DNA from: Candidatus Altiarchaeota archaeon
GTDB lineage: Archaea > Altiarchaeota > Altiarchaeia > IMC4 > SCGC-AAA252-I15
NCBI GenBank assembly: GCA_041306075.1
Contig: JBFYKH010000008.1
Location: forward strand, 11,482 to 75,481
Length of the DNA: 64,000 nucleotides
Direction of reading: 5' to 3'
The notes under the pieces were generated by a model. It searched no databases, was not told where the DNA came from, and saw only the letters and a list, made by a program, of their open reading frames with translations. Numbering within the stretch: position 1 is the stretch's first letter; each line of letters begins with the position of its first letter. Both the position numbers and the translations under genes were made by a program. This document shows positions 1,687 to 57,991 of this stretch, one piece after another.

Positions 1687-2854
1687 ATCGAAGCACCTTT
1701 ATCGGGTCCAGCTGCGATGCGCTCCACGCCGGGTAGAGGCCTGCGCCCATGCCGAGGACTATCGAGAATCCGAGCCCGATTGCGATGAGGGTCGTGGTCA
1801 TTATGGGCTGGAATGTCGAGTACTCTTGGACTAGGGCTATGGACAGGTAGCCGAGGGACAGTCCTATGATTCCGCCGATTAGGCTGAGGATTGCGCTTTC
1901 CTGGAGGACCTGGAGCAGTATGGTGGTGGTGGTGGCGCCTATCGCCTTCATGACGCCTATCTCCCGCCGGCGTTCCATGACCGACATTATCATCGTGTTC
2001 ATGATTCCGAGGCCGCCGACTATAAGGGATACGGCGCCGATTCCGTAGACGGCCATCTGGACTGTCCCGAGGGTGGATTCTATCTGGCGGACTATCGTGA
2101 GGAACGACTGCGCCCTCACGCCGTCCACCTGGTCGTTTATCCTCTGGGTTACGTTCTCGACCTGGGTCACGTCCACCAGCTTGACCTTGAGCGAGGTTAT
2201 CCTGTCGTCGTCCTCTATCTCCTGCATGGTCTTCAGCGGGGCGTAGGAGGCGCCGTCAATGCTCGTGTCCCCCGTCTCCTCGAGTATGCCGATGACCTGG
2301 AAGTAGTAGCTTTCCGTGGACTGGTTTGACGTGCGCTGGTATTCTATCTCGTCGCCGACGTTCAGGTTCTGGTTCTCCGCGGTGGTGTAGCCCAGGAGGA
2401 CCACATCTGAGCCTTCGTCCGAGGAATCGAGCTTCCGGCCTTCGCCCGCATTTATCTCTTCGCCCACCAGGTAGTCCAGGTCTTCCGGGTTCACCCCGGT
2501 GAACGTCATGGCTGATGAGCCTCCGCCGCCCCTGCCGAATATGGCGCCCGGCCCCCCGAACCCCCTGAAGCCCCGCGTCACCCGGTATTGGCCGACAGGG
2601 ACCACGCTTTCTATCTCATGCCAGCTCGACAGCTCGTCTATGGCGTCCTGGGTGATGCCGACATTGTTGTCTGATTCATCCCTTACGTCTATGACGCCTC
2701 CGACGTTCCCGAACTGCTGGCTTATCTGCTGGTTCAGGCCTTCGCCGATGGACCCGAGCGTCAGGACAAGCCCTATGCCCATGGCTATACCGAGGACGGT
2801 TAAGGCGCTACGTATCTTCTGCCTGAATACGTTTTTTACCGCTATGTCTAGCAT
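1679..2854 (-). CDS. ABC transporter permease, FtsX/MacB-like (N-terminal TM, large extracytoplasmic domain, C-terminal 3-TM FtsX bundle)
   Basis: Architecture and C-terminal motifs (LTIVRQIESTLGTVQ...IVGGLGIMNTMIMSVMERRREIGVMKAIGA) typical of MacB permeases. Paralogous to the 11842 and 13064 genes. Confidence 0.85.
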   Translation of the reverse strand: MLDIAVKNVFRQKIRSALTVLGIAMGIGLVLTLGSIGEGLNQQISQQFGNVGGVIDVRDESDNNVGITQDAIDELSSWHEIESVVPVGQYRVTRGFRGFGGPGAIFGRGGGGSSAMTFTGVNPEDLDYLVGEEINAGEGRKLDSSDEGSDVVLLGYTTAENQNLNVGDEIEYQRTSNQSTESYYFQVIGILEETGDTSIDGASYAPLKTMQEIEDDDRITSLKVKLVDVTQVENVTQRINDQVDGVRAQSFLTIVRQIESTLGTVQMAVYGIGAVSLIVGGLGIMNTMIMSVMERRREIGVMKAIGATTTTILLQVLQESAILSLIGGIIGLSLGYLSIALVQEYSTFQPIMTTTLIAIGLGFSIVLGMGAGLYPAWSASQLDPIKVLRYE

Positions 2855-2873
2855 CTTGTCTCAGCCCGGGAGG

Positions 2874-4523
2874 TTATTTCTTCCTGCCGCGGTATCTCCT
2901 GTAGGCCAGGTAGGCGGCAGCTAGGACCAGGGCCCAGAGGGCATATGTCGTCCAGCCTGTCGTGCTCGATGATGAGGTCCTGCCGCTGGTTCCGCTTGCG
3001 CTTCCGCCCCCGAGCGTCACCCTCTCGGTCTGCAGGACGCGCTGGTTGTTCTGGCCGGTGTATTCGATTTCAAGGACTGCGGGGCCCGTGGCGGATGTCG
3101 CGAACGTGAACGTCGTCTGCTTCGTCGCCTTTATGTCAGATTTGTAGGAGATTATCCTTTGGGTGTTGTCGGAGCCGGATGTCAGGTTGCCGCTGCCGGT
3201 TCTTCCGGAACCGACAGTGTAATTCGAGCCGGTCCTGTTCCTGCCGCCCTGCGCGAACCCGCCGCCGGTGTTATTCTGCTGGCCGGCGGACGTCGGGTTT
3301 ATTATCAGGGTGGCTTTGACGCCGTCGGCCGTGCGGGTCCCTATGTTCGCCACGTCTATCCGTACGTTGCCGCCCGATGAGGTGACCTGCATGACCTCGA
3401 GCACGACTCTGCCGGATACGTCGACGCCAAGGTCCTTTTCGACGGCGTACGATGTGCCGCCTACGTCGTACATGATTGTGAGGGGTATCGAGTAAACCGT
3501 CGTGTCTGCGCTCCAGCTCACTGCAATGCCGAATTCGGCCTCTGTCTCGCCTCCCGCCTTGATGAGCGGGAAGTATTTCTCTGTCGAGTCTGCCGGGGCG
3601 AAGGGCGACGTCAGGTTAAGGTTCAGGGTGACGTCTTCAGCGTCCGATTTGCCCACGTTTTTCAGGACGACCCTGAGCCGGGTCTGTTCCCCCGGGCCGG
3701 TCGGGGAGTAGCTTACGTTGTACACCTTGAAGTCTACGCCCACGTCGTCGATGTTTATGCCGAAGGATATGTTGTCCGTTGCCTTGGTTCCAGAGTTGTC
3801 CGCGTATGTGAGCCCGACGTATGCCATGCATGCGCCGGCCGAGGACGGCTTGATGGAGTATGATAGTGTGAACGGCTTGTCCGATGCCACATCCCCGACG
3901 TATTTGCGCGAGGACCCGATTATCGTCAGGCAGGAGGACGTGAGCGTCGATTCGACGTCCTTGACCCGGTCCTTGGACACTCCGACAAGGGTTAGTTCGT
4001 CCAGGGTGTTCTTGAAGTAGTTCGTGTTCGCCGGCGTCAGTTCGAACAGGGGGTTTCCGAGGACGTTTATCGGTATCTCCCAGGAGGTGTATTGGTTGTT
4101 GTCCTTGGCCCCGTCAGACTTGTATCCGTCGAAGTTGATTTGGACTTGTATCGACGACAGCCCGGATTTTGCGTCCGGGTCCACGGTGAATATGACAGGC
4201 ATGGTCTTTGACACGCCAGCGTCCATTCTGCCGATGTAGAATGTCTTGTCTGTCCGTACGATTGAGGTCGTCCGCAGCCATACCTGGACGTTATCGGCGC
4301 TTTGGCCGCCGGTGTTCTCCACCACCAGGTTTAATACGCTGGTGTCCCCCGGCTTCACGCTTGAGTCCAGGGAGGTGGATGTGAAGTCGACCACCTTCTT
4401 TGTGGCCGGCAGGTCGGTGGCCGATGTTGTTGCCGCGCTCGCCCCTAGTCCCGCCATGAGGAGTAGCGTCAAAGCCAGAATCGTCTTTGTCTGCCGTGCC
4501 AGTATATTTTTTTGGTTTATCAT
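2874..4523 (-). CDS. Secreted cell-surface protein with CARDB/S-layer-like beta-rich domains, Thr/Ser/Gly-rich stalk and C-terminal TM anchor; partner of the adjacent ABC system
   Basis: Track ORF 2874..5207 is N-terminally over-extended: its first 228 aa are low-quality GC-frame translation. The real start is the internal Met MINQKNILARQTKTILALTLLLMAGLGASAATT (signal peptide) at 4523. An alternative ATG lies at 4538. A TATA-like cctataaaaata at 4541-4552 fits a leaderless start at 4523. The C-terminus ...TTGWTTYALWALVLAAAYLAYRRYRGRKK is a TM anchor plus basic tail. Paralog of 10537..11835. Confidence 0.7.
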   Translation of the reverse strand: MINQKNILARQTKTILALTLLLMAGLGASAATTSATDLPATKKVVDFTSTSLDSSVKPGDTSVLNLVVENTGGQSADNVQVWLRTTSIVRTDKTFYIGRMDAGVSKTMPVIFTVDPDAKSGLSSIQVQINFDGYKSDGAKDNNQYTSWEIPINVLGNPLFELTPANTNYFKNTLDELTLVGVSKDRVKDVESTLTSSCLTIIGSSRKYVGDVASDKPFTLSYSIKPSSAGACMAYVGLTYADNSGTKATDNISFGINIDDVGVDFKVYNVSYSPTGPGEQTRLRVVLKNVGKSDAEDVTLNLNLTSPFAPADSTEKYFPLIKAGGETEAEFGIAVSWSADTTVYSIPLTIMYDVGGTSYAVEKDLGVDVSGRVVLEVMQVTSSGGNVRIDVANIGTRTADGVKATLIINPTSAGQQNNTGGGFAQGGRNRTGSNYTVGSGRTGSGNLTSGSDNTQRIISYKSDIKATKQTTFTFATSATGPAVLEIEYTGQNNQRVLQTERVTLGGGSASGTSGRTSSSSTTGWTTYALWALVLAAAYLAYRRYRGRKK

Positions 4524-4626
4524 TTTTTTGTCCTGCATTATTTTTATAGGTTGATTGCCTAGGTATAGGTTGAAACCATATAAAAGCTGCATGTGAAACA
4601 AACTGAAACATGTAACAAACTGAAAC

Positions 4627-5223
4627 ATGGAGACCAACCTAGGGCATACGGTAGTCATGGTATTGTCCTTCATGTTCGGGGGATTCCTGCTCACAACATA
4701 CGCATTTACGGCGTATACGGTGCTCTGGAGCACTGAAACCGGCGCCGCGACCGCCGATGCCAACAGGACCGGCCAGGAGACGAACGCGTCCTGGACCGCG
4801 GACCGCAGAGACATGGGACGGGGAAGGGAAGTGCCCGGTTTCCCCCCGTTCATACAAGGGAGGCCCATCAGGGAAAAAATCGACCCAATCGATTTCCTCA
4901 CATCCCCGTTCATGATGTTCACCCTCATCGGCGGCCTTGTGTCGATGGCAGGCGCCATATCCATCAGGACCCTCACGCACAAGAAAGCTGTTACCAAGCT
5001 GAAGGAGGACCTGATGGAGCTGTACCTGACGGACGAGGAAAAGAAGGTCATGTCCATACTCGAGTCCGCAAGCCCGGACATGACGCAGAAGGAGCTGACA
5101 GACAGGACCCGGTACTCGAGGGTGAAGGTCCACCGCCTCCTCTTGAGGCTCGAAGCGAAAAGGCTCATAAGGAGGATACCCTGCGGCCAAACGTACAAGA
5201 TACTCATTGCGGAGAACTCCTGA
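4627..5223 (+). CDS. Membrane-anchored winged-helix (MarR/ArsR-like) transcriptional regulator
   Basis: Two predicted TM helices (VVMVLSFMFGGFLLTTYAFTAY; FMMFTLIGGLVSMAGAISI) followed by a wHTH LTDEEKKVMSILESASPDMTQKELTDRTRYSRVKVHRLLLRLEAKRLIRRI. Divergent from the surface-protein / ABC operon. Confidence 0.6.
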   Translation: METNLGHTVVMVLSFMFGGFLLTTYAFTAYTVLWSTETGAATADANRTGQETNASWTADRRDMGRGREVPGFPPFIQGRPIREKIDPIDFLTSPFMMFTLIGGLVSMAGAISIRTLTHKKAVTKLKEDLMELYLTDEEKKVMSILESASPDMTQKELTDRTRYSRVKVHRLLLRLEAKRLIRRIPCGQTYKILIAENS

Positions 5224-45176: not shown

Positions 45177-48100
45177 TCACTCGCCCTTGTTCAGGGCTTG
45201 GAAGTACGCCACCCTGATTTTCGCGCCTATCTCGCTGATTTCCACTGCAAGCTTCCTGTATTCGCGCTGGTTCAGGGAGGCCGTCAGCCTGCTTGCCCCG
45301 GCTTCGAGGCCGCCGGTGTCGCCGCCCCGCCGTTGTATCTCCGTTATCATCGCCTGATGCCGGGCGACGACCGCTTCGAGCCGCGTGTACATGGACGAGT
45401 CCTGCTCCTCCGTCCGGCGCTCGCTCTCCACTGCCTTCTTGAGGGCGTCCTCCTCCCGCTGCATCTCCTCCGCTTTCTTCCTCGCGGCCTCCTGCCGCTC
45501 CATAGCCGTAAGGAGCCTCCAGGCTGCCAAGTCCGCAGTGAGTTTGTCCATGGCCTTTTGCCTGAGTTTGTCCAGGTTGTCTTTCCGCTTTTGCGCCTCC
45601 TTTATCTCTTCAGGCGTCGGCTCCGGGGTTTCCGGTGCGCGCTCCCGCTGCTTCGGCTCCTGGGTTTCGGAGGTTCGCTCAGGCGGCTTCGGCTCCCAAT
45701 TCGTCTGCGTCTTGGGCAGGGGGCCGCCGGACGTCGAGTCGGCGGTGGTCGCCGTCGACTTTGGGGGGGATAGGTCTATCCCGAGGAGGGTGGTCTTCGT
45801 CTCCAGGTCGTTGACGCTCCTGGCCCCTAGCTTGTCCAGAAGCTCCTGGGCGCCCTCCTTGTCTCCTCCCTTGAGCCTGGCCTTCACCTCCCTCAATGTC
45901 GAGCGCTTAAGCTCCGCGGCCACTCCCTCGGGCGTAGCCTCGACCGTGGACCCTTTCTTGGCGTATTTCTGGAGCCTTCCGGCCGCATCCTCGGCCCTGC
46001 CGTTCTTCAGGAGTTCGATTGCATCGTCCCTGGTCTGCGCGCGGCCGACGTATTCGTCCACCATCCGGGCGTCCATCTTGGCGAGGCTGGACAGCCCTTC
46101 TATAGTGTAGGAGGTCTTCAGTATGTTGCTCATCGTCTCGTTGTCCACCTTCCCGCGTATCTTCTCAAGGCCGTCGATTGCGTTGTATATGCTGTCCTTC
46201 AGCCGCCTTTTCTCCTCGACCGTGAGGTCTTTGCCGTACGCTTCGATGTAGGTGTCCCGCAGATGCCGCCTGACCTCTTCCGAGCCCCTGAAGCCTCCCT
46301 CGACCGAAGCCTCCGCCGGGAAGTACGAGTTCATCTCGTTTATCATCCTGAACTCGACCTCCCTGCGCTTCAGTATGTGTTTCCTAAGCCGCTCTATCTC
46401 CTTCTCGTCCGTTATGCCGGCCGCCTTCACCCGCTCGTCAAGCTCCTTCCGGGTCGCCGCCTCCAGCGCCTCCTTCCGGAGCGTGCTCATCGTGGCGTCA
46501 ACCCTGAACTTCTCGTGCGCGGCCTCGTGGACGACCGTCCTTTCCGTGTCGCTCCCTATGCTGGCCTGGCTGCCCTTCTCCAGGATTTCTCCGGAGATTA
46601 TGTTCAGGCCGACCACTTCGCCCTTCTTCGGCGGAGAGTTGAAGCCCCCCCAGTTGCCCTTGCTCTCCATGAACTTGTCGACGAGGCCGGGGGAGTCTCC
46701 CTTGCCCTTCCAGTCAGCCTTGTCAACCACTATCGCGTAGGGGGATATGTCGCCTATGCCGCTCGCCCTCATCCGCTCCATGTAAGCCTCGTTCGTGCTC
46801 AAATCGATGAAACTAGCGGACTTCAGGTCTTCGGCGGTGACGTCCTTGCCCCGCCGTTTAGTCGACTCGATTAGGTAGTTTACCGCCGCCTCCCTCTCCT
46901 TGGAGCCTTCGGCGGCGTTGAGCCCGGACAGTATCGCCTTGTGCTCTTCCTCGGCCCGGTCGTGCCGTATCTGCCTGACATGCCTTAGGATTCCCTCGAC
47001 CTGCTGGCCTGAAGCGCCTTCGGACCGCATCTTGTCGGTGATGATTCTGTCGGACATGTTGTATAGCGTCTCGTTCGTGGCGATGCCAGTGTCCCTGTTC
47101 CTGCGCATCTTGTCGAGGGCGGTTTTGACCGACGCGTCCGTCATAACCTGGTCGGGACTCATGCCGGTCATCCTGCCGACCATCTCAAGCTCGGCCGCGG
47201 CCTCGTTGTTGTCGTAGAGGCTCACGCCGTTGCGTTTCAGCGATTCGGCGTACGCCGTCTGCTCAGGCGTCAACGGCACATCGGCTGCATAAGCTCCCGG
47301 CATCGGGGTCGAGACGCCCAGGGATGCCCTGTCTCTCCTGCCGGAACGGGCGCCGCCAGCATCGGCCACCTGGCCCCCGAGCGGCCCGGAGCTGCCAGTC
47401 GGCTCCTGCATCATCTGGCTTGCCGGCACGTCCGGCGTGATGCCGCTCTTCTGCCAGAATTCTCCGGGTTGTATTTGCTTTGAGAGCTCCGGGTTCGAAG
47501 AGTATATGGAGGCGAGGTTCCGGGCCTTGACTTCGCCTGAGTCGAGCCTCTTCACGTAGTCCTGCACGGTGCTGGACTTGTATATGTCCGGCATGTTCCG
47601 CTCGAAGAGCTGCCTCTGCCCGCTCTCCTGGCTGAGGAGGAACCTCCAGTTCGGGTTGTTGTGGTCGAGGAAGTCGGCCTCTGTCTTGTAGGGGCCCGTA
47701 CCCCAGTTAGCCCTCGTGAACGACGTGTTCAGCACGTCGAAGTGGCTTTGCATCCGCTCCGTCCCCGAGCCGTCCTCCTTCCAGCGGAACCATCCGTTCG
47801 GGTTCCTGAACCCGAGTTCGGAATGCGTCCTGAGGTTCTCTATGTCCCGGTCGGCAAACGACGGGAACATCCCCTTGAGTTCGGCGGACGAGTAGCGTTC
47901 GGTGTTGCCGTGCCCGCTAACCCACCCCTTGAGGGAGAGCTCCATGCCCGTGAACCTGTTCCTCTGCAGGTCGTCGCTGAGGCTCTGCGCCTGCACCTGG
48001 ACGGCCTTCATCTCTTCGTCCGCTATCTGGCCTGCGAGGCCGCCTACGTAGCCGAGGCCGCCGGCGACGGTGCCGAGGCCGGGAAGCACTACCGTGCCTT

Positions 48101-51100
48101 TGGCGAGGGCTTCGGCGAGGCCTACAGCCCCGTCCGAGTATGACCCTGTCGCTTGAGCGCCCTCCTGGTAGCCGGCGTACGTCGCGAAGCCGGCGCCGAG
48201 CGCCCTGCCCGCCAGCGGGCCGGCCTTTGCCGAGAACTTGGGCGCTATCTTGGCTACCCCCGCCTCCACACCTTTTTGCGCAAGGCCTAAGCCGGCCATC
48301 TGGGCCGTGCTCACCCCTAGGTTGGCGGCGACCTGGCCTGCTTCGACCGGTTTGCCGCGCAGGACGTCTCCGGCCAGGTCTATGGCCTCGAACTGGGCTG
48401 CACCCTTCACGGACGACGTCAGGTGCGTGCCGACGCTGCGGAACACTCCATGCTTGGGGGCCTGACCCCCATCAGGCTGGGCTGCCGGAGAGACCATATG
48501 CCTTGGCATCGCCGGCGCCTCCACGAGTTGACCATCCATGTAGATGCTTGTCAAGCGGACCCCGGGCGGAATCTTCTCCAGGGTGAGGGCGTCGGTTAGT
48601 CCTCCGCTGACATGCTTTACCTTGAAGTCGAGTGCGCCCTGCGGGTTCTCGGTTACTGTGAGTTTAGCCACGGGCGTTGGAGCGCTCGGGCCATGGAGTT
48701 CGCCGCCGGAGAGGGTCGATATTTTCTGGCCTATTGAGCCTTTTTTTCGCTCAAGGATTTGGCTTGGGTAATAGGGTTTAACTACCGTCCCTGAGGGTAC
48801 CGGTCCGGTACCCTCCATCCTCACCTTTGTCTGGAGGCCGATGTCGGACTGTCTGAACGCGCCCGTGCTGCATGAGTCCAGGACGGTCACGACCCGCCCG
48901 GTCTCAGGCACGGTCCCCCGTATTATCTCAAGTGCCCTTTCGTTCGGTATCTCCTCGGTCTTTATCCCTGAGAAGAGTCCGAATTTAGTCTTTTTACTGT
49001 AGAGGTCTGAGGTCTTGAGGTAGGCCGGAGAGTTGTGGAGGTCTCCCTGGAATCGCGGGTCCTGCTGGTACGCGTAGGGGTCGCCGAGCTGTATAGAGTC
49101 TGGCGTCCCGTGCCCGCCCAGTATCCTGTATTGTGGGGCGCCGACCATCCGGGTGTGGCGTAGCATGGCCCTGGCCAGTTCCGGCGTGTTGCCGGCCTCG
49201 TAGAACATAAAGCCGTGGTCTTGGGCGAGTTTTATGTTGTCGGCCTGGTTGTAGAGCGCCCCGTTCCAGTCGGCCTTTGCGTTGACTATGATTCCGGAGT
49301 GTTTCGGTTTATACTGGCCGGATTCTATGAGCCGGTGCTGGTTGTACTGGTTGAGTAGGGCGTCGACGCCGTATCTGCCGAAGACCGTAATGCCGTATCT
49401 TTCATTCAGCAGTTTGGCTGCGCCAGGCTGCCTTTGCTCCAGGTCGTTGAGGACGCCTATGTTTGAGCCAAGGTGGTAGGGATTGTTCGCCCACCATGTG
49501 ACTGCCGTCCTCCCAGGGTTCAGCCCGGTTTTTGCAATAACTTCTTGCGCTACGAAGACGCTGGCAAATTTTTCGGACGGGCTTCCCATCTTGGAGGAAT
49601 GCGGCGGGGGGAGCTTTAACTTGCCGTCAGGAGACGGCAGGGGCTCGCCTCTCATCGCCGCTGCCAGATTGCTAGTCAGCGCAGCCCGGTTGATTGTGTC
49701 GCCGCCGGCCATGACATCCCTCATCAGCGCCGTAGCCCCCTTGCCGAATTCAGGGTCGTTTGCCGCCAGCTCGATGAGGTACCTCATCTTCATAGTTTCC
49801 GAGGGCAGGGGCGGAAGGGTTGTGGCGCCCACCCGGAGGGGCTTGATTTCCTGGGCGAAGTGGTTCAGTAGTTCGCCCTGGTTCTGCTTCAGGAACTCCT
49901 TTGCCCCCTGGTTGCCGTTCTGGATTTGGGTGTTGAGTTCATGAAGGGTGTTGTTGGCGGCTGCCTTGTCGCTCAGGCTGTCGAGGATGGCCTTGCGGTC
50001 CGCCTCAGCCGACGGCCCCGTGCCTGCCGCCGAAGCCCATATGCTCGAAGGGAACGGGGTTGTTTTTGGCGGCGTCCCGGCTACGGGTGTGGCCGCCGCC
50101 CCCAGCTTTACCGCCGGCATCATGGTTTTGTCGGCGATGTATTCTTCCGACGTCTGGCCTGTGACGGCCGGCGCTATCTCGGCGCGCTCCAGGATGCTTG
50201 CGGGGTCGCGCTGGAACAGCCGGTTGACGCCGCCTGCGGAGTCCGCCATCCCGAGCACCTGCCGTCTCACGTTGTCCGGGTCCCTAACCGCCCCGGTGTG
50301 GGCCATCTGCGACAGCTTGGATTCGAACCTCCTCGCCTCCTCGGCCGTGGCTCCGAGCCTCTCGTCCTCCTTGGGCGTGGCCAGTAGGCTGTTGTATGCC
50401 TGCATCTTCGCCTCCTCCTGCCGGTTCTCCGCTTCAATCCGCTCCGCGTATCTCTTGGCCTTCAGCTCGTCCTCGCTGACCGGCTGCCGGTCGGCTCCGG
50501 GGGGATTGGGTGCCGTCCCTTGTGGGGCCGGGGCTCTGGCCGTAGGCTCCCCGCCCGAGGGCACCGGCGCGCCGACCTTGGGCATCGGAGCGGCCGGAGG
50601 CTTCATGGGGCCTTGTGTCTGGATTTTGACGCCTGAGCCGTGCGCCGGCCCCGGCGATTCGGCCTGCCCCGGCGTCTGGGCTTCTGTTGTCGCGTTGACG
50701 GACGGGGGGATTTGCCGTCCGAGGCTGCCAGACTGCGCTCCGTCCTCCCTCATCACGGAGACGCCGCCGCCCGATGTGCCGGACGACGTCGACGAGACGA
50801 CGGTTGCGGGAGACTGCGATTCCTCGCTCATTGATGGCGACTCCTCTGCTGGCGCGCGCCTTGACGGCGGCCGTGGCTGTTGCGGCTGCCCCATGGAAGG
50901 AGGCCTCGCGGCTGAAGCCCGGGTTGCGCGGCGCGCAGCCGATTGCCCGCCGCCCGTCAACACCGCCGCCTGGGAGGATGACGAGGGAGCGTCCGGCGAG
51001 GACGGTGGGGATGGGGCTGAGGCCGCCCGCTGCAGCGTCGTCCCCGCTCCTGCCGCCCCGGCTCCGGCGATTACCGGGGCCGTGGACGCGTTGATTGGCA

Positions 51101-52412
51101 TGCCTGCGGGCGCCGTGGAGCCGCTTGCCCCATGCGCGCCCGAGGCGCCTGAGGAGGACATGGACCTTGGGCCGACACGCCCGCCCGAGAAAGGGGACCT
51201 TCCGCCCATAAACGGCCCGCCAGGCTCGCCGAGCCTGTCCATAGGCGAGTCCGGGACCTGCCCCTGCGCGCTTGGGCCGCCGCCCACGTGGTCGCCCACC
51301 AGGCGGCCGATTGTGAACAGCTGGGCGGACGTCGTGACCGCGGTCGCCACGCTGCCTGAGCGCATCCAGGTACCGAGGAACCTCGTCATCTGGGTCACAG
51401 GCCTCACACCCGACACAGTTACGAGGGCGCCTATCCACCCCATCATCTGCATGCCAACCATGGGGGCGAGGAGGACTCCGAGGTAGGCGGCTAGCATGAG
51501 TATGAAGTCAAGGAGCGTCGGGGCGTACGCGGTGTTCGCGAGCATGAGGCCGACGCACAGGAACAGCGTCTGGAGTATCTGGACCATGAAGATGAGTATC
51601 GTGAACTTCCAGAGCCTGGTTCCGATGCCCCGCATTGAGAAGAGCGGGTTCGGTATGTCCGTGAAGAACATGAAGAGGATGAGCGGGAATATGCACGCCA
51701 TCACGTAGACGAGGAAGTACCGGTAGGCGGCAAGCGGCGCCGCAATAGCCGTGACTATGAGGAAGAACAGCATGGTGCAGCAGTATTTCGCTTCGGTGAA
51801 CGTGAAGACCACGGTCGACACCGTGGTGACCGAGGACCGGGACAGCGCCGTCTGTATGAGGGTGTCGCATATCTCCCGGACTATGTCCAGCATGAACTGG
51901 AATATCGCCGGCGAGAGCGAGACCAGGACCATGCCGACGAACACTCGGACGAACATGTCCTTCGCGTTCACCCTCCCCTGCGGGGAGCCGGACATGAATA
52001 TCAGGTAAATACCTATCATGATTATGGCGAGGGCGTAGAAGAGCTGCAGCATCTCCATTATCCTGACGTTGACCGCCCGGATGCCCTGGTCCTCCGGCAT
52101 GCTGAACTCGACCTGGCCGCCGTCTATCAGGTGTATCACGTATGCCTCGCAGTCGCCGCTCGGCGCAAAGACGCACGGGTTGATTTGCGTGAACACCCAG
52201 ATGGGCGTGAGCGTCACCTCCAGTATGGTTTCCGAGACCAGTTCGACGAACGCCTTGGCCGCCTCGAAGACCATGAGGACCCACAGGTTGGCGCCCCAGA
52301 TCTGCGCGATAACGGGGGTTGCTATGAGGAGGAGGACGGCGAAGGCTATCGCTAGCCTGCGTGCGACGACTTTTCGGCCTTTCGGCTCCCCGTCTTGAGA
52401 ATCTGCCATCAA
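45177..52412 (-). CDS. Giant (2411 aa) polytopic membrane protein: signal peptide + ~6-TM module, Pro/Ser/Gly/Ala-rich linker, ~1600-aa hydrophilic region with caspase/CHAT-like His...Cys motifs, HExxH motif and C-terminal coiled coil
   Basis: Single uninterrupted ORF. The N-terminal TM module is homologous to that of the upstream 52409..55585 gene (FYALAIIMIGIYLIFMSGSPQGRVNAKDMFVRVFVGMVLVSLSPAIFQFMLDIV vs LYALLIILTGIYYVWASISPNIRAMVKTQLTYLIVGMIACGLSLQIFDILLEL). 4-nt start/stop overlap (ATGA) with the upstream gene. Confidence 0.8.
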   Translation of the reverse strand: MMADSQDGEPKGRKVVARRLAIAFAVLLLIATPVIAQIWGANLWVLMVFEAAKAFVELVSETILEVTLTPIWVFTQINPCVFAPSGDCEAYVIHLIDGGQVEFSMPEDQGIRAVNVRIMEMLQLFYALAIIMIGIYLIFMSGSPQGRVNAKDMFVRVFVGMVLVSLSPAIFQFMLDIVREICDTLIQTALSRSSVTTVSTVVFTFTEAKYCCTMLFFLIVTAIAAPLAAYRYFLVYVMACIFPLILFMFFTDIPNPLFSMRGIGTRLWKFTILIFMVQILQTLFLCVGLMLANTAYAPTLLDFILMLAAYLGVLLAPMVGMQMMGWIGALVTVSGVRPVTQMTRFLGTWMRSGSVATAVTTSAQLFTIGRLVGDHVGGGPSAQGQVPDSPMDRLGEPGGPFMGGRSPFSGGRVGPRSMSSSGASGAHGASGSTAPAGMPINASTAPVIAGAGAAGAGTTLQRAASAPSPPSSPDAPSSSSQAAVLTGGGQSAARRATRASAARPPSMGQPQQPRPPSRRAPAEESPSMSEESQSPATVVSSTSSGTSGGGVSVMREDGAQSGSLGRQIPPSVNATTEAQTPGQAESPGPAHGSGVKIQTQGPMKPPAAPMPKVGAPVPSGGEPTARAPAPQGTAPNPPGADRQPVSEDELKAKRYAERIEAENRQEEAKMQAYNSLLATPKEDERLGATAEEARRFESKLSQMAHTGAVRDPDNVRRQVLGMADSAGGVNRLFQRDPASILERAEIAPAVTGQTSEEYIADKTMMPAVKLGAAATPVAGTPPKTTPFPSSIWASAAGTGPSAEADRKAILDSLSDKAAANNTLHELNTQIQNGNQGAKEFLKQNQGELLNHFAQEIKPLRVGATTLPPLPSETMKMRYLIELAANDPEFGKGATALMRDVMAGGDTINRAALTSNLAAAMRGEPLPSPDGKLKLPPPHSSKMGSPSEKFASVFVAQEVIAKTGLNPGRTAVTWWANNPYHLGSNIGVLNDLEQRQPGAAKLLNERYGITVFGRYGVDALLNQYNQHRLIESGQYKPKHSGIIVNAKADWNGALYNQADNIKLAQDHGFMFYEAGNTPELARAMLRHTRMVGAPQYRILGGHGTPDSIQLGDPYAYQQDPRFQGDLHNSPAYLKTSDLYSKKTKFGLFSGIKTEEIPNERALEIIRGTVPETGRVVTVLDSCSTGAFRQSDIGLQTKVRMEGTGPVPSGTVVKPYYPSQILERKKGSIGQKISTLSGGELHGPSAPTPVAKLTVTENPQGALDFKVKHVSGGLTDALTLEKIPPGVRLTSIYMDGQLVEAPAMPRHMVSPAAQPDGGQAPKHGVFRSVGTHLTSSVKGAAQFEAIDLAGDVLRGKPVEAGQVAANLGVSTAQMAGLGLAQKGVEAGVAKIAPKFSAKAGPLAGRALGAGFATYAGYQEGAQATGSYSDGAVGLAEALAKGTVVLPGLGTVAGGLGYVGGLAGQIADEEMKAVQVQAQSLSDDLQRNRFTGMELSLKGWVSGHGNTERYSSAELKGMFPSFADRDIENLRTHSELGFRNPNGWFRWKEDGSGTERMQSHFDVLNTSFTRANWGTGPYKTEADFLDHNNPNWRFLLSQESGQRQLFERNMPDIYKSSTVQDYVKRLDSGEVKARNLASIYSSNPELSKQIQPGEFWQKSGITPDVPASQMMQEPTGSSGPLGGQVADAGGARSGRRDRASLGVSTPMPGAYAADVPLTPEQTAYAESLKRNGVSLYDNNEAAAELEMVGRMTGMSPDQVMTDASVKTALDKMRRNRDTGIATNETLYNMSDRIITDKMRSEGASGQQVEGILRHVRQIRHDRAEEEHKAILSGLNAAEGSKEREAAVNYLIESTKRRGKDVTAEDLKSASFIDLSTNEAYMERMRASGIGDISPYAIVVDKADWKGKGDSPGLVDKFMESKGNWGGFNSPPKKGEVVGLNIISGEILEKGSQASIGSDTERTVVHEAAHEKFRVDATMSTLRKEALEAATRKELDERVKAAGITDEKEIERLRKHILKRREVEFRMINEMNSYFPAEASVEGGFRGSEEVRRHLRDTYIEAYGKDLTVEEKRRLKDSIYNAIDGLEKIRGKVDNETMSNILKTSYTIEGLSSLAKMDARMVDEYVGRAQTRDDAIELLKNGRAEDAAGRLQKYAKKGSTVEATPEGVAAELKRSTLREVKARLKGGDKEGAQELLDKLGARSVNDLETKTTLLGIDLSPPKSTATTADSTSGGPLPKTQTNWEPKPPERTSETQEPKQRERAPETPEPTPEEIKEAQKRKDNLDKLRQKAMDKLTADLAAWRLLTAMERQEAARKKAEEMQREEDALKKAVESERRTEEQDSSMYTRLEAVVARHQAMITEIQRRGGDTGGLEAGASRLTASLNQREYRKLAVEISEIGAKIRVAYFQALNKGE

Positions 52413-55400
52413 CCACCCCCCCGGCCGGGTTTCTGTTTGGCCAGGGATTCGATGAGGGCGTACCTTTGCGCCCGGTTAACGTCGTTGTTGGCCCTCGCCA
52501 GGTATTCGCCCTGGTTTGTGACGCCAGCCCAGTTCTTCTTGGCCGCGTCCGAGTATGCGAGGTATGCCGCGTGATACCGCACGTTCTGGCTGCTCATCCT
52601 GGATTTGACAGCCCCTCCCGAGAGCGCATCCTTGGCCGCGTTCAGGTACTGCTCACGCTCATTCTGGCCGAGGCCCGAGTAGACCTGCCAGGCCACGGCC
52701 TCGCCGTCTCCGACGTCGGAGTATGCGCTGTCGCGCCTGTCGCGGGCGGACCTGAGGTTTGCCGCGGCCGCCCCGGACGTCCTTTCCCATTCGGCCACGT
52801 CATGGCCGAACAGCTTCTGTTCTGCGGCGGACAGGCCGGTCCACGTCTTGCCCATGATGGCAGCCGCTTCCGCCTGCGGGAGCGCCTTCCAGCCGGGGCT
52901 GTTCAGGTCCTTCGATTCGAACGCCGCCTGGGCTCTTGATTCGCTCTTCTGCCTGCCTTCGGCGGCATCGGACAGTTCGTCCCTGGCCTTAGACACGCCG
53001 TCCAGGGAGAGGTCTTGGGGGGATGTGGTGTAAAGACCCATGAGCCCTACGTCCGTGATTGTGGTCTGCACGGCCTGCGACTGCGAGACCCCGGCATACC
53101 TTCCGTACGCCTTGTTCATCGCCTGCTCGACCCTGCTCCTTGATTTCGCGTCCTGTGCGCCCTCGTAGTCCTTCTTCCAGCCCATCCGCTTGCGCATGTT
53201 CTCCGGTGTCGCCTCCCACACGTCCTGCCGGTCCAACAGGACGGCGTTGCGGTTGGCGTCGAGGGCCTCGGCTTTCGCGAGCTTGTCGTTGGCTCCGCCC
53301 TTGCCGTCGTAGCCGAGCTGGGCCTGCCGCCATTGTGGCGTGCCCCCCCACGCCTTGTCTTCAGTGACCGCTGCCGCGCGCTGGTAGAAACCGTACGCCC
53401 GGTCGACTGCCCCGGCCCGGGTGGACGGGTCATCCTCCTTGTAGCCGAACGACTTCAGTTCCCGGTCGGTGAGGGATGCGCGGACCTGGTCCTTGGACAT
53501 CTGCCCCCCGTTCTTGGCTTCGGCCTCCATTAGCTTCTCCTGTATCGGCTTGCGTTCCTGCGCCTTCGCGCGGATGTTGTTGTGCGCCTCCCCGTCTCCT
53601 GCCACCCTCTCGCCCATCCGCTTGAACATCCTTGTGCCTGTGCCCATCGCGACCGCGGCAGTGGCCATTATACCGAGGCCCACCACGGGCGCCATGGGCA
53701 GCATGAGAAGTGCTATTGGAAACCCTAGTTTAGAGCCGAGTATTGCTGCCTTCACCGCCGGCGGCGTGCCCTCTCCCGGCTTGTATCCCTTGTACATGTC
53801 GGCTGCGGTGTTCGCGAGGTCTCCGGATATGCCCTTGACGCTGAGCCAGCCGTGGTTGAACATGGTCTTGCCGGTCGCAGGGTCCTTCTCCCAGCGGCCG
53901 GTCATCTTCCACGAGACGTTGGCAAGGCTCTTGCCTATCGGGTAGTCGGCTATGCTTCCGCGGAGCATGCCCCTCAGGAAGTAGCCGGCGGGGGGCAAGA
54001 GGAACTTCGCGTTGGCTGCGAGGCCGGCGGCCTGCCACCCCACCTTCCCCAGGCCTGAGGACTGCGCGTAGCGCATGCCATAGTACTGCTGCGACGACAT
54101 GTACTCCGGGGGCGTGCCGGCCTCGACCGGGTCCCCGAAGAGCAGCCTGTTCCGCCTCTCCTGTAGGCTGATGCCCTTGTCGAAGACGCCTCCGCCGGCG
54201 GCTCCCGTCTCCCGGACGCCGTCCCCGAGGCCGCTCTGTGCATAAGTCGGCTTAGACCCCGACGCCGCAAGATGCTCCGCTGAAGCCTTCCTGGCGCCTT
54301 CGGAGTACGGCGGCGGAGGCTGAGCCGCCCCGGCGCCAAGCGGCCCATCCCCCCTTGAGGGGATGTTGTAGCCCGCGGCCGACGCCTCGGAGGCCTGAGT
54401 CCTCGACGACAGCCGTTCCGCGTGCATGGCAGCCGAGGTTATGGCCGCGGCGCCCTGGCCCTGTATCATGCTCCCGATGAACACCAGCCTCGGGTTGCCC
54501 ATAGTCTGGCCCGCGTAGATGAACGCGGCTCCTGCGATGCCGGTCATGCTGGCTATCATCATCGGGCTGAACCCTATCATCGCGAACGCGACGAGCGCCG
54601 CCATGGCGCTCGTCAAAGCCATGCCCAGGGAGGACGCGGTGTCGAGGAAGGCCTGGGACAGCACCATGAATATGGCCATGGGAATCGGCAGGAATATCCA
54701 CGTCAGCGTGAGCTTCATCAGCTTGTTGCCCATGCCCCGGAGGTAGTCGAACGACATGCAGAATACCGTGAACGGAAATATACCGCCGAAGACCAGGACG
54801 ACGTCGAAGCGGATGGCCAGTATTATGTACGGGAGGATTATCGCGGCCACGAGCATCAGCACGATAGGCCATATGAGCGCGACCCCGACTCCGCCGGTGG
54901 CGACGAGTATCAGCGCTATGATGCTGCCTCCGACGGCTACTCCCGGGAGTCCGGTCTTCAGGAACCCCGTGATAGGGTCCCAGTTGGTTGGCACTATCCG
55001 GTTGCCAGCAAACTGGACGCTCAGTATCTCGTCGAGGAGGAAGTTGTTCAGTTCGAGGAGTATGTCGAATATCTGCAGGGAGAGCCCGCACGCTATCATG
55101 CCGACTATCAGGTAGGTGAGCTGCGTCTTCACCATGGCGCGGATGTTCGGGGATATGGACGCCCAGACGTAGTATATTCCCGTCAGTATTATGAGGAGGG
55201 CGTAGAGGGGTATCAGGAGGTTGAATATCGTCGGGGCCAGGAACTCCCGTATCACCGGGTGCCTGGAGTCAAGGTCGCGTATCTGGACCGGGACGACGCC
55301 CAGGAACTTGCTCCTCTTCCCGTAGAGGAGGCCCATGAACATGCCCCTGTAGGTCTTTATGCCGCTGAGGGAGTGGAGCATCGTGTCGCCGCCTTTTGCG

Positions 55401-55585
55401 ACTATGACCTTCCCGGACTGGTCCTTGGCGTTATCGGTGTCCTTCGAACTCCTCTTGTCCATATCCTCCCCGGTGAGGGGATTCTCGTTGCCCTGGGCCT
55501 GGACGGAGAGGGCGTACTGTGACAACAGGAGGCAGGACGCGACATAGACGAGTAAAACGCGTTTTATTATCTCACCCTTCGCCAT
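52409..55585 (-). CDS. Large (~1058 aa) polytopic membrane protein, paralogous N-terminal module to the 2411-aa protein, helical C-terminal region with one extra TM pair
   Basis: Signal peptide MAKGEIIKRVLLVYVASCLLLSQYALSVQAQG. Start set at 55585 because the TATA-like cttaaatata overlaps the first ATG at 55609. Six TMs, then a Gly/Ala/Pro linker and an Ala/Lys/Glu-rich helical domain. Confidence 0.8.
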   Translation of the reverse strand: MAKGEIIKRVLLVYVASCLLLSQYALSVQAQGNENPLTGEDMDKRSSKDTDNAKDQSGKVIVAKGGDTMLHSLSGIKTYRGMFMGLLYGKRSKFLGVVPVQIRDLDSRHPVIREFLAPTIFNLLIPLYALLIILTGIYYVWASISPNIRAMVKTQLTYLIVGMIACGLSLQIFDILLELNNFLLDEILSVQFAGNRIVPTNWDPITGFLKTGLPGVAVGGSIIALILVATGGVGVALIWPIVLMLVAAIILPYIILAIRFDVVLVFGGIFPFTVFCMSFDYLRGMGNKLMKLTLTWIFLPIPMAIFMVLSQAFLDTASSLGMALTSAMAALVAFAMIGFSPMMIASMTGIAGAAFIYAGQTMGNPRLVFIGSMIQGQGAAAITSAAMHAERLSSRTQASEASAAGYNIPSRGDGPLGAGAAQPPPPYSEGARKASAEHLAASGSKPTYAQSGLGDGVRETGAAGGGVFDKGISLQERRNRLLFGDPVEAGTPPEYMSSQQYYGMRYAQSSGLGKVGWQAAGLAANAKFLLPPAGYFLRGMLRGSIADYPIGKSLANVSWKMTGRWEKDPATGKTMFNHGWLSVKGISGDLANTAADMYKGYKPGEGTPPAVKAAILGSKLGFPIALLMLPMAPVVGLGIMATAAVAMGTGTRMFKRMGERVAGDGEAHNNIRAKAQERKPIQEKLMEAEAKNGGQMSKDQVRASLTDRELKSFGYKEDDPSTRAGAVDRAYGFYQRAAAVTEDKAWGGTPQWRQAQLGYDGKGGANDKLAKAEALDANRNAVLLDRQDVWEATPENMRKRMGWKKDYEGAQDAKSRSRVEQAMNKAYGRYAGVSQSQAVQTTITDVGLMGLYTTSPQDLSLDGVSKARDELSDAAEGRQKSESRAQAAFESKDLNSPGWKALPQAEAAAIMGKTWTGLSAAEQKLFGHDVAEWERTSGAAAANLRSARDRRDSAYSDVGDGEAVAWQVYSGLGQNEREQYLNAAKDALSGGAVKSRMSSQNVRYHAAYLAYSDAAKKNWAGVTNQGEYLARANNDVNRAQRYALIESLAKQKPGRGGG

Positions 55586-55695
55586 GCCATTTAGGATTTG
55601 GTGTTGCATATATTTAAGGGGTATTTGGACGGGTTCGCGGCCTTTTTTTAACGTTTTATTGGCGCTCGGGTAATGTAGTTCAAGGTAGCGTCAAA

Positions 55696-56427
55696 ATGGC
55701 CTCGGACAGATGCCAGACGGGCATAAAGGGATTCGACGAACTTGTTGGCGGCGGCCTTCCGAGGGGGAGGACGATACTGGTGAACGGCTCGTGCGGCACC
55801 GGCAAGACCGTGTTCTCGACGCAGTTCCTCTACAACGGGGCGGTGCATTACGGCGAGCCCGGGATATACGTCATGCTGGAGCAGGACGTCTGCGAGTTCA
55901 AGGACGACATGGCGGGCTTCGGCCTCAACCTGCAGAAGCTGCAGTCCGAGGGGAAGCTGGTCATAATCAACGCCAGCCTGACGAAGAGGGAGGGGGGGAA
56001 CTTCCTGGAGCTCAAGTCCGAGACGCACGACATAAGCCCGGACATGGCCTCCGTCAACAAGATTTGCGACGTGATACAGGAGGCGGCGACGAAGATAAAG
56101 GCCAAGAGGGCGGTAATAGACAGCCTCAGCTCGATGACGATAACCTTCGACGACACGCAGGCCTTGAGGAGGGTCGTCCTGGACCTGAACTACACGCTGA
56201 AGAAGATGGGCTTAACCACCCTCATCATATCCGACGAGATAGCCGGCGACGTGACCGAAGCCGCCCAGAAATACGTGGTCGACGGGGTCCTGACGCTCAG
56301 GTATGTGACGGTCGGGCCCGACCCGGGCAGGACGCTGGTGATAGACAAGATGCGCAAGACCCGCCACAGCGAGAACATACACGCCTTGAAGTTCACAAAG
56401 GATGGCATTGAGATTCAGAAGGAGTAA
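55696..56427 (+). CDS. Single-domain KaiC/RadA-like (RecA-superfamily) ATPase
   Basis: GIKGFDELVGGGLPRGRTILVNGSCGTGKTVFSTQFLYNG (Walker A), Walker B LVIIDSLSS. ~240 aa, as in ArlH/KaiC-like archaeal ATPases. Confidence 0.85.
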   Translation: MASDRCQTGIKGFDELVGGGLPRGRTILVNGSCGTGKTVFSTQFLYNGAVHYGEPGIYVMLEQDVCEFKDDMAGFGLNLQKLQSEGKLVIINASLTKREGGNFLELKSETHDISPDMASVNKICDVIQEAATKIKAKRAVIDSLSSMTITFDDTQALRRVVLDLNYTLKKMGLTTLIISDEIAGDVTEAAQKYVVDGVLTLRYVTVGPDPGRTLVIDKMRKTRHSENIHALKFTKDGIEIQKE

Positions 56428-56431
56428 TGTG

Positions 56432-57991
56432 ATGAAGGGCACCCCCTACCTCTTGTTCCTGGCCTTGGCGCTCGCGGCCCTGCCGTCCGCCTCGGCGCAG
56501 GTCGAGCAGGCGCCGAGGATGGAGCCGCTCGCGCTCTACGAGCCGCCAGAGGCGCAGGACGAGTACGCCGGGGACGTGGGGAGGGCGATAACCCGGTACT
56601 TCTGCCAGGGCGTGGGGGACGGCGGCCGCTGCAGGATACAGGAGGCCTGGGACAGCCGCCTCCAGGGAGTGTGCTGCTTCGGCTCATGCTGGTTCGGCGC
56701 CGCGAAATGCGTCCAGGGCACGCAGCCGAAACCCCAATACGACCTCTACGGCATGTTCCAGAAGTTCGCGTGCAACGGCGTCCAGGAGGGCCTGGACTGC
56801 ATGATACCAGATAAGCTTTCCGCGGAGGTGGGCTACAAGCTCTCCGGGAAATGCTGCCGCGGCCGCTGCATGCTCGGCTCCACCGGCTGCGGGGGCATAT
56901 GCGGGGACGGCTTATGCACCGACCAGGAGAGGGCCGGTGGAAACTGCCACGACGACTGCGGAAGCTCCTGCGGCGACGGCTACTGCACCGACCGGGAGCG
57001 GAAGGACGGGAACTGCATGGAGGACTGCGGCGGCTCAAGGCCGCCGGAAGCGGGCGGAGCCGACTTCGAGGGCAGGCTCAAGGAGATGGAGGCGCTCGCC
57101 TGCCTCGGGGTCGCGGACGGCAGGGCGTGCAACCTCCCCAAGGACCTTCAAACCACCTTCGGGCTAAGCGGAGTCTGCTGCGGAGGAAGATGCGCGTACA
57201 GGAGGACCATTTGCGAAAAAAAACCCGTGGCCGCGAAGCCGGACCTGGCCGTGTCAGCCATCAGGGTGAGCCCGAAAGTCCACGGAGTCGATGAGCCGGT
57301 CAACGTGACCGTGGACGTCAAGAACATCGGGGACGGCCCGGCGAACGCCAGCTTCTGGGTGAGGCTGAGGGTCGAGGACCGCTCAGGAAGGGATTTGGCC
57401 GACTACGACGTGGAGGTCAACGGCCCGATGGCCCCGGAAGCCTCGGCCGAGGCGGCGTTCCATGACGTGTCATGCCCCGCCGACGCGAACCCGTGCATAC
57501 TGAAGGCCGACGTGGACGAAGGCAGCGGCCTCATGCCCGCCAGGATGGACCGGGTGGACGAATCCAGGGAGGACAACAACTTCGCAGCTGTCGGCTTCAA
57601 CGCCAGGGAGAAGCCGTGGGAACCCCCATGCGGCGACGGAGTATGCTCCGAGGGGGAGAAGTGCGACGCCGACTGCAGGCGCGAAACCCCGGCGGACAAC
57701 ACGCAGGCCATCGCCTTCGCCGCCCTGGCCGTTGGGGCGCTCGCCCTCGCCGCGTACCTCGTCACGAGGAGGAGGGGCCCTAAACCCGAACCAGCGAAGC
57801 CCTCCCAGGGCCAGTCCGTGGAGGATTTGACGAGGCAGAAGGAGGAGATAGAGAAGATGCTCGAAATCGCGAAGGCGAAGTACCACCGGCGCGAGCTAGA
57901 CGAGGAGAGCTTCAGGGAGATAGTCAGGGACAACCAGAAGAGGATAATAGAGCTCGAACTCAAGATAAGGGTCAACAGGCCCTTCGACTAG
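56432..57991 (+). CDS. Cys-rich modular surface protein: signal peptide, three ~40-aa six-Cys modules, two CGDGxCTxxER-x4-NC-x2-DCG repeats, CARDB-like Ig domain, TM anchor, cytoplasmic coiled-coil tail
   Basis: Modules ...CQGVGDGGRCRI...GVCCFGSCWFGAAKC / CNGVQEGLDCMI...GKCCRGRCMLGSTGC / CLGVADGRACNL...GVCCGGRCAYRRTIC. Repeats ICGDGLCTDQERAGGNCHDDCGSSCGDGYCTDRERKDGNCMEDCG. CARDB-like PDLAVSAIRVSP...VNVTVDVKNIGDG. TM AIAFAALAVGALALAAYLV. Confidence 0.7.
   Translation: MKGTPYLLFLALALAALPSASAQVEQAPRMEPLALYEPPEAQDEYAGDVGRAITRYFCQGVGDGGRCRIQEAWDSRLQGVCCFGSCWFGAAKCVQGTQPKPQYDLYGMFQKFACNGVQEGLDCMIPDKLSAEVGYKLSGKCCRGRCMLGSTGCGGICGDGLCTDQERAGGNCHDDCGSSCGDGYCTDRERKDGNCMEDCGGSRPPEAGGADFEGRLKEMEALACLGVADGRACNLPKDLQTTFGLSGVCCGGRCAYRRTICEKKPVAAKPDLAVSAIRVSPKVHGVDEPVNVTVDVKNIGDGPANASFWVRLRVEDRSGRDLADYDVEVNGPMAPEASAEAAFHDVSCPADANPCILKADVDEGSGLMPARMDRVDESREDNNFAAVGFNAREKPWEPPCGDGVCSEGEKCDADCRRETPADNTQAIAFAALAVGALALAAYLVTRRRGPKPEPAKPSQGQSVEDLTRQKEEIEKMLEIAKAKYHRRELDEESFREIVRDNQKRIIELELKIRVNRPFD

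Follow-up and report, generated by a model that had tools for sequence, protein, structure and literature searches.

A predicted caspase-fold cysteine peptidase domain in a variable cassette of a giant archaeal membrane protein

What is a protease-like signature doing in the middle of a giant membrane protein of an uncultured sediment archaeon, and does it denote a peptidase at all? The question is raised by a 64,000-nucleotide stretch of contig JBFYKH010000008.1 from a Candidatus Altiarchaeota archaeon (hereafter, the window), in which an initial annotation had read the segment 48815-49310 of a 2411-aa protein as carrying the His/Cys signature of a caspase-fold protease. Translation of this segment on the minus strand reproduces exactly the peptide on which that proposal rested (KHSGIIVNAKADWNG...ILGGHGTPDSIQLGD...VLDSCSTGAF) and places it within one uninterrupted open reading frame (ORF; 45177-52412, 2411 aa from a TTG codon), with the His codon at the position originally reported for it. 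The numbering proposed for the dyad, H1101/C1181, is right for the TTG start and is followed here unless ATG numbering is stated, but both residues drop by one (H1100/C1180) with the likelier start. The gene probably begins at ATG 52409 and not at TTG 52412, since this ATG overlaps the upstream stop codon as TGATG and yields a product of 2410 aa that matches a database protein (P0057) exactly.

Homology searches determined that the His...Cys signature is not a chance resemblance. A 342-aa query around the motif retrieved seven proteins of about 550 aa (E 3e-14 to 1e-5) in which GHGT and SCSTG are invariant, a profile of the conserved part recovered 35 further proteins in a word-indexed search, and an exhaustive profile search of 1.84 billion representatives returned 3,451 proteins at E ≤ 1e-3, of which 960 scored E ≤ 1e-30. 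The window protein itself was recovered in the exhaustive search with E 6e-72 over aa 962-1279, and the best identity of its domain to any relative is about 33%.

Conservation was assessed on an alignment of 177 members, combining the matches of the word-indexed profile search with the best-scoring 50%-identity representatives of the exhaustive search. Both residues of the dyad, whose conservation among homologues had been proposed as a check, are invariant in 177 of 177 sequences, and so is an Asp directly following the first β strand (D1048); a Glu occupies the position of E1072 in 176 of the 177 and is invariant in an alignment of 88 sequences. The Ser that follows the Cys is present in 163 members and changed in the remainder (about 8%). 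Because this Ser varies and the Cys never does, the Cys is the conserved nucleophile candidate. The same pattern bears on a reading of the segment as an α/β-hydrolase-type esterase or lipase, with H-G as the oxyanion-hole motif and S-C-S-T-G as an Sm-x-Ser-x-Sm nucleophile elbow. The order HG...S-x-S-x-G does resemble lipase signatures from sequence alone, and one member matched Abhydrolase_5 (E 0.07), but where the candidate Ser changes, T, E, L or N takes its place, and the sequence that follows the motif holds neither an invariant Asp nor an invariant His. We consider this reading effectively refuted and accord it next to no credence.

The Cys is equally conspicuous within the window protein. 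It is the sole Cys (C1180 in ATG numbering) in aa 286-2410, encoded by 45177-51554 of the window, a span of 2,125 extramembrane residues for which the local background of 0.94% predicts about 20 (P about 4e-8). The retention of a lone Cys in an otherwise Cys-free stretch, together with the invariance of Asp, His and Cys and the preservation of the GHG and SC(S)TG contexts across the family, argues against a catalytically dead, caspase-like scaffold or peptide-binding module of the kind represented by Raptor-N, c-FLIP and the inactive repeats of some polymorphic toxins. A precedent for such a module exists in DdvA, which has an incomplete active site (PMC11506125); for the window domain we regard it as very improbable.

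The predicted structure agrees with the sequence signature. With a 34-sequence alignment as input, the AlphaFold2 prediction for aa 963-1281 reached a mean predicted local distance difference test score (pLDDT) of 78.7 and a predicted template modelling score (pTM) of 0.78, with core blocks at 85-98 and low confidence only in two insertions. The model consists of a four-helix N-terminal sub-domain (~49317-49526), an α/β core of alternating strands and helices, and a small C-terminal β sheet. The core forms an α/β/α sandwich with a caspase-type central sheet, and the predicted catalytic His precedes the Cys in sequence, each lying just after a core strand (H139 after strand 133-137 and C219 after strand 213-217, in domain numbering), which is the arrangement of clan CD peptidases. 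Fold and dyad conservation thus both support the caspase-fold reading of the segment, and we conclude with high confidence that it forms a caspase-fold His/Cys peptidase domain. The domain looks catalytically competent: the C1181 thiolate would act as the nucleophile and H1101 as the general base, while D1048 at the end of strand 1 and E1072 at the end of strand 2 may complete the active site or the S1 pocket. A role of this kind for D1048 is proposed by analogy with legumain Asn42 and TcdB Asp587, and an acidic pocket may favour basic P1 residues, as in gingipains and metacaspases.

The window copy has peculiarities of spacing. The distance of about 80 residues between His and Cys given in the initial annotation is accurate here (79 intervening residues) but atypical of the family (median 45), the excess being due to an insertion. 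Directly after the Cys motif there is another insertion, as a result of which 60 residues separate the Cys from a conserved Pro; the family median for this distance is 22, and the next-longest spacing among 173 members is 34. The 38-aa post-Cys segment is modelled at low confidence (pLDDT <50 at domain residues 229-240 and 249-261), and it could constitute a regulatory or self-cleavage loop.

The relation of the domain to named families was examined with curated models and with structures. No relevant Pfam or NCBIfam match was obtained for the whole giant protein or for a 400-aa segment of it, no NCBIfam or PADLOC model matched 34 family members, and a single-sequence search of the PDB yielded noise only. 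The only Pfam family matched repeatedly was DUF4347 (PF14252), with matches in 5 of 34 and 4 of 88 members and in the proteins of two loci described below, L025 and L031 (best E 2e-5); the latter two score 19.3 and 21.6 bits, under the gathering score of 24.6 bits. The best, albeit weak, sequence match of the family profile in the PDB was the Pseudomonas aeruginosa type VI secretion system (T6SS) effector Tce1 (PA0256; PDB 9qpe; E 0.064), a DUF4347 protein with the same HGT...C signature, and the alignment places the His and Cys of the family on Tce1 His186 and Cys240. These two residues have been named as the putative catalytic dyad of Tce1 in a 2026 structure paper, in which an active-site mutation (C115S) of its paralogue Tce2 alleviates yeast toxicity (PMC13323088). 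Compared with DUF4347, the window family has in addition a helical sub-domain of about 70 aa, conserved and N-terminal (with W...PG...FGRYP motifs), and the invariant Asp/Glu pair; furthermore, Tce1 is small and travels in Hcp rings into which it is loaded, whereas the window domain lies within a membrane protein of 2,410 aa and no T6SS is present.

Similarity to CHAT proteases is structural only. The CHAT model (PF12770) was matched by one of 34 members at E 0.062 and by none of 88 at E ≤ 0.01, and the Peptidase_C14 and Peptidase C80 models were not matched. A GHGT-type His context is shared with the CHAT proteases (SAVED-CHAT, 8tl0; Craspase TPR-CHAT, 7y83/7y9x; DdvA, 8rot; separase), but the window protein has neither a TPR or SAVED partner domain nor a defence-island context. 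The caspases and metacaspases (C14), gingipains (C25), clostripain (C11) and legumain (C13) likewise showed no sequence-model match, and the window domain differs from them in its family-specific helical sub-domain and C-terminal β sheet. By sequence the family is closest to DUF4347; by structure it is closest jointly to DUF4347/Tce1 and CHAT, with a more distant resemblance to the cysteine protease domain (CPD) of large toxins. As those models are defined, the domain is not, on sequence grounds, a member of C14, CHAT or C80, and it very probably represents an uncurated family that is new within the known clan CD. The kinship with metacaspases and CHAT domains that had been suggested at the outset therefore holds at the level of the caspase fold, but the domain falls outside both families, in the absence of a curated model match.

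The CHAT comparison invites another reading, that of a regulatory protease under the control of a signal, which, like SAVED-CHAT, Craspase or separase, would be latent until a ligand or partner aligns the dyad and would then cleave one specific partner in signalling or defence. The family is soluble and widely conserved, and the variable N-terminal region of about 250 aa in its stand-alone members could act as a sensor. However, no PADLOC defence-system model was matched, no conserved neighbourhood or partner was found at the loci examined, the CHAT model finds only the one marginal member given above, and nothing in the window suggests a signalling operon. We deem a regulatory protease improbable.

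The distribution of the family sets the window protein apart. All named members belong to the Patescibacteria (Paceibacterota, Staskawiczbacteria and Saccharibacteria), and the relatives are almost all stand-alone proteins (median length 516 aa) that end in the domain, with a median of only 2 aa beyond it; the region of about 253 aa in front of the domain is poorly conserved. A hydrophobic segment occurs in only 3 of 176 members, and judging from their sequences the stand-alone members look like soluble proteins. At the loci examined they lie among bacterial housekeeping genes, such as secA, uvrABC and the dcw cluster, with no conserved partner gene. Among the 177 proteins, an internal position of the domain is seen in the window protein alone. 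The genome that encodes this protein is archaeal, as established by GatE, HcyBio, Trm1, NurA, AMP phosphorylase and SecY beside an archaeal ribosomal-protein operon. The N-terminal regions of the stand-alone members showed no homology to the window sequence that precedes the domain, implying that the protease domain alone was captured. A scan of a genome collection with the single protein found no close relative, a scan with a three-sequence alignment found two Saccharibacteria loci only, and a metagenome scan returned 19 loci, all at or below about 35% identity except for two short fragments; neither the genome-collection nor the metagenome scans revealed a second copy of the window's caspase-fold cassette.

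Two further loci extend the range of the family. On the L031 contig (56% GC), from the sediment sample series (Ga03152xx) that also yielded the sister-strain contigs discussed below, a stand-alone member of 534 aa (3362-4966, plus strand) lies beside an archaeal-type CCA-adding enzyme, a β-CASP nuclease and GyrB. From the first two neighbours this copy is probably archaeal, which indicates that the family is not confined to the Patescibacteria. The L025 locus (330-3863, plus strand) encodes a protein of 1177 aa with a non-canonical architecture, in which the domain lies near the C-terminus (aa ~951-1111); an adjoining primase-polymerase/AAA_25 gene suggests that this locus is a mobile element or plasmid.

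The protein that carries the window domain is built of discrete modules. From its N-terminus it comprises a polytopic membrane domain, a Ser/Pro/Gly/Ala linker of about 280 aa, a first variable cassette with the protease domain, a conserved block, a second variable cassette and a C-terminal coiled-coil tail. A helical stretch lies between the Ser/Pro/Gly/Ala linker and the protease domain, which is flanked by long low-complexity linkers; long linkers flank the other modules as well. Within the membrane domain, a VirB2-like hairpin (51894-52034) resembles the pilins of type IV secretion systems (T4SS), with a match to PF18895 (T4SS_pilin) at E 0.0013, under the 26.6-bit cut-off. The gene immediately upstream, apparently translationally coupled to the giant gene, encodes a 1066-aa protein with a paralogous membrane domain (54380-55609 versus 51405-52409; 25% identity over 274 aa, E 2e-14), a T4SS_pilin match at the same hairpin that is also under the cut-off (E 0.031), and no Cys at all after the membrane domain. 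VirB6 and TrbL models gave no match, no VirB4, VirD4 or other T4SS gene or ATPase was found within the 64-kb window, a word-indexed homologue search with the membrane domain gave zero matches, and an AlphaFold2 model of this domain from the two window paralogues was unusable (pLDDT 39).

Comparison with sister strains revealed that the giant gene is a mosaic. Exact look-ups of the giant protein and of SecY from the window returned no contig that encodes them, and we reached four sister contigs (L010-L013) through the 90%-identity cluster mates of the neighbouring AMP phosphorylase (93% protein identity); they are syntenic with the window and encode a 2584-aa orthologue of the giant protein. 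Three blocks can be aligned at 77-86% nucleotide identity: the membrane domain with its linker, the conserved block with its glycine-zipper-like stretch, and the last ~100 codons of the tail. The ratio of nonsynonymous to synonymous substitution rates (dN/dS) in these blocks is 0.16-0.27, compared with 0.08-0.13 in housekeeping neighbours, and on this comparative evidence the giant gene is real and under purifying selection. The membrane domain retains 86-88% amino-acid identity (dN/dS 0.18) and the conserved block 77% nucleotide and 73% amino-acid identity (dN/dS 0.16-0.22).

The cassette that holds the caspase-fold domain, in contrast, shows no similarity to the sister contigs in blastn or blastp searches, while both its flanks align at about 77% nucleotide identity, and the second cassette has no nucleotide match in them. 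At the site of the first cassette the sister strains carry instead about 2 kb with two HExxH...SEI modules (HEREH...SEI and HEELH...SEI), and the caspase-fold domain is absent from all four contigs. One of the sister modules matches the HEAAH module of the window's second cassette weakly (blastp, 29% over 106 aa), and all three share downstream motifs. The HEAAH region, which has no Pfam match, looks on this sequence evidence like a gluzincin-type metallopeptidase module. An assembly chimera is argued against by the reading frame, which is kept across all junctions, and the GC content of the caspase-fold cassette (58-59%, compared with ~63% nearby) gives no clear sign of recent transfer. In the sister strains, the counterpart of the final 140 aa of the window protein is the C-terminus of a separate ORF of 367 aa; the gene has therefore been either fused or split.

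These observations suggest a model in which the domain was captured in this archaeon as an interchangeable internal cassette of a mosaic protein that is anchored to the membrane by its polytopic N-terminal domain. Its most likely role is that of a processing protease whose targets would be the long disordered linkers of the giant protein itself, cleaved in cis or by a neighbouring copy, and perhaps also the linkers of the co-encoded paralogue. Such cleavage would release or activate the downstream modules, namely the glycine-zipper block and the HExxH metallopeptidase-like module. Several features favour such a processing role. The cleavable intersubunit linker of caspases is located where the window copy has its post-Cys insertion, and the disordered 38-aa segment right after the catalytic Cys resembles it in this respect. 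Long linkers flank the modules, and in a sister strain the position is occupied by other protease-like (HExxH) modules. More than 1,100 residues follow the domain, which is thus internal, and a caspase-like domain of a large toxin is typically a releasing peptidase if internal, whereas C-terminal ones are toxins (Zhang et al. 2012, PMC3482391). A precedent for cleavage of a protein's own linker is provided by the CHAT domain of DdvA, a membrane-tethered, extracytoplasmic protease proposed to cut its own flexible linker (PMC11506125).

A number of results weigh against this model. The window sequence does not match the curated Peptidase_C14, CHAT or DUF4347 models (for DUF4347, no match at E ≤ 1). 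Foldseek comparisons of the structure were not significant (best E 0.04 in the PDB and 0.002 in BFVD), although CED-3, Tce1 and viral caspases held the top ranks in the two databases; we take this as limiting the fold assignment and not as contradicting it. The other family members are soluble stand-alone proteins that carry the domain as their C-terminal-most part and have unrelated housekeeping neighbourhoods. Moreover, since sister strains lack it, the domain must be dispensable for the core function of the giant protein, and stand-alone C-terminal copies and dispensability together fit a trans-acting enzyme better than dedicated autoprocessing. We regard the complete statement, that a caspase-fold endopeptidase has been captured as an exchangeable cassette and processes the linkers of its own polypeptide, as evenly balanced between right and wrong.

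The main alternative is that the active clan CD protease is itself the payload, an interchangeable effector or toxin module of a membrane-anchored delivery protein that acts in trans on a neighbouring or host cell. Wholesale replacement of the cassette between sister strains with conservation of its flanks is a hallmark of polymorphic toxin diversification (PMC3482391), and the giant protein does combine a conserved anchor with recombining variable cassettes between flanks of 73-88% amino-acid identity. Tce1, the closest match among solved structures, is a putative protease effector delivered by a T6SS, as is its paralogue Tce2; in other family members the domain is the C-terminal-most part; each of the tandem paralogues has a sub-threshold T4SS_pilin match in its membrane domain; and the extramembrane part is depleted in Cys, as in many secreted proteins. 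On the other hand, the cassettes of the window protein, and with them the domain, are internal and not C-terminal. The next gene downstream of the giant gene encodes a divergent AMP phosphorylase and not a small immunity-like protein, and neither a secretion ATPase nor a known trafficking domain at threshold was found within the 64-kb window. Signal peptides are missing from the stand-alone relatives, which are encoded among housekeeping genes, so that a toxin function is not an obvious ancestral role. On balance an effector payload appears possible but rather unlikely.

Membrane anchoring, and an extramembrane part that may be surface-exposed, would also suit a caspase-fold transpeptidase or ligase, comparable to the GPI8 transamidase and legumain-type ligases, that attaches or cross-links surface proteins. 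Matches to such enzymes ranked below those to proteases, however, acceptor-related genes are absent nearby, and the stand-alone, apparently cytoplasmic relatives would have no obvious use for transamidation. We hold this reading to be highly doubtful.

Returning to linker processing by a captured protease, parallels of architecture are found in large bacterial toxins. The C80 domains of MARTX and of Clostridioides difficile TcdA/TcdB and the releasing peptidases of polymorphic toxins are, like the window domain, internal caspase-fold His/Cys domains of giant multi-module proteins, with an adjoining hydrophobic or glycine-rich region and other enzymatic modules; TcdB has the same Asp-His-Cys order, and the swapping of modules between strains is a further toxin-like trait of the window protein. 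The structural match to C80 is, however, more distant than that to Tce1 or CHAT, and an inositol hexakisphosphate (InsP6)-binding site is not expected in the window domain. The window protein also differs from C80 proteins and polymorphic toxins in being anchored by a polytopic membrane domain and not secreted, in the internal position of its variable cassettes, in that no immunity gene was seen, and in its archaeal host.

A parallel for the tandem arrangement is provided by the extended VirB6 proteins of the Rickettsiales T4SS (e.g., Anaplasma VirB6-4, 4,322 aa), which are described as tandem paralogous polytopic proteins with very large C-terminal extensions (PMC7648143). The window pair shares this tandem polytopic architecture, and both of its N-terminal domains show the T4SS_pilin matches described above, but the resemblance is one of architecture only; VirB6/TrbL models gave no match, and VirB4/VirD4 genes are absent from the window. 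A further, unlikely reading makes the giant protein an archaeal counterpart of MARTX/TcdB-like toxins or of extended VirB6: a T4SS pilin/VirB6-derived membrane scaffold with exchangeable protease cassettes, a caspase-fold module in this strain and HExxH modules in its sister. The caspase-fold module would have come from a family of otherwise stand-alone soluble proteases, nearly all of them in Patescibacteria, and would either free the glycine-zipper and metallopeptidase modules downstream of it or be delivered to a partner cell. Were this so, the strain-level swapping of cassettes would reflect an arms race at the cell-cell interface.

Table 1. Coordinates of the giant gene, its modules and the predicted active-site residues in the window (minus strand; residue numbers from TTG 52412 unless noted).
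Feature	Position	Strand	Remarks
Giant gene	45177..52409	-	7.2 kb; 2410 aa from ATG 52409, 2411 aa if TTG 52412
N-terminal membrane domain (aa 1-335)	51405..52409	-	Signal/anchor helix and 6-7 hydrophobic helices; hydropathy scan
Variable cassette 1, 582 codons	48393..50138	-	Holds the caspase-fold domain; unrelated cassette in sister contigs
Predicted caspase-fold (clan CD-like) cysteine peptidase domain	48570..49526	-	aa 963-1281, TTG numbering
Invariant Asp D1048 (TTG)	49269..49271	-	Directly after β strand 1; candidate third catalytic or S1-pocket residue
Near-invariant Glu E1072 (TTG)	49197..49199	-	End of β strand 2
Predicted catalytic His, CAC, H1101 (TTG)/H1100 (ATG)	49110..49112	-	G-G-H-G-T context, directly after β strand
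Predicted nucleophile Cys, TGC, C1181 (TTG)/C1180 (ATG)	48870..48872	-	L-D-S-C-S-T-G context, directly after β strand
Insertion directly after the catalytic Cys motif (TGAFRQSDIGLQTKVRMEGTGPVPSGTVVKPYYPSQILERKKG)	48738..48866	-	Length matched by no other member examined
Conserved block after cassette 1	47443..48392	-	Glycine-zipper-like stretch and ~200-aa domain without assigned function
Variable cassette 2 with putative gluzincin-like metallopeptidase module	45483..47442	-	HEAAH at 46515-46529, NEM ~60 aa downstream
Upstream paralogous gene, 1066 aa	52409..55609	-	Stop overlaps the giant-gene start as TGATG

The conserved block directly downstream of the protease cassette begins with a Gly/Ala-rich stretch of about 125 aa (48015-48392, minus strand) with glycine-zipper-like repeats (e.g., GLGTVAGGLGYVGGLAG). 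This stretch is kept in the sister strains (dN/dS 0.16) and might insert into membranes. Further into the block (~47570-47731, minus strand; aa ~1561-1614) we observed a sub-threshold match (E 0.0026) to the C-terminal 54 positions of the Pfam family N_Asn_amidohyd, which is probably due to chance. Elsewhere in the window there are two large CARDB-domain proteins (56402-57991, plus strand, and 2874-5207, minus strand), the first of which contains 6% cysteine, in contrast to the neighbouring Cys-free giant proteins. No Rfam family reached its gathering threshold in the whole 64 kb, a result to which no separate tRNA scan (ARAGORN) was added.

Together, these results define a large family of predicted caspase-fold proteases, comprising about 3,450 clusters at 50% identity, for which Pfam, NCBIfam and PADLOC hold no model. 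Most proteins of the Patescibacteria, where its named members reside, have no known function, and the invariant Asp/Glu/His/Cys set of this family offers direct targets for mutagenesis. In an uncultured sediment archaeon, the domain has been reused as a swappable module of a mosaic giant membrane protein. Should a processing or effector role be correct, the logic of internal releasing peptidases and polymorphic cassettes known from bacterial toxins would extend to the archaea, and the domain would offer a way into the function of giant membrane proteins of this kind in archaea.

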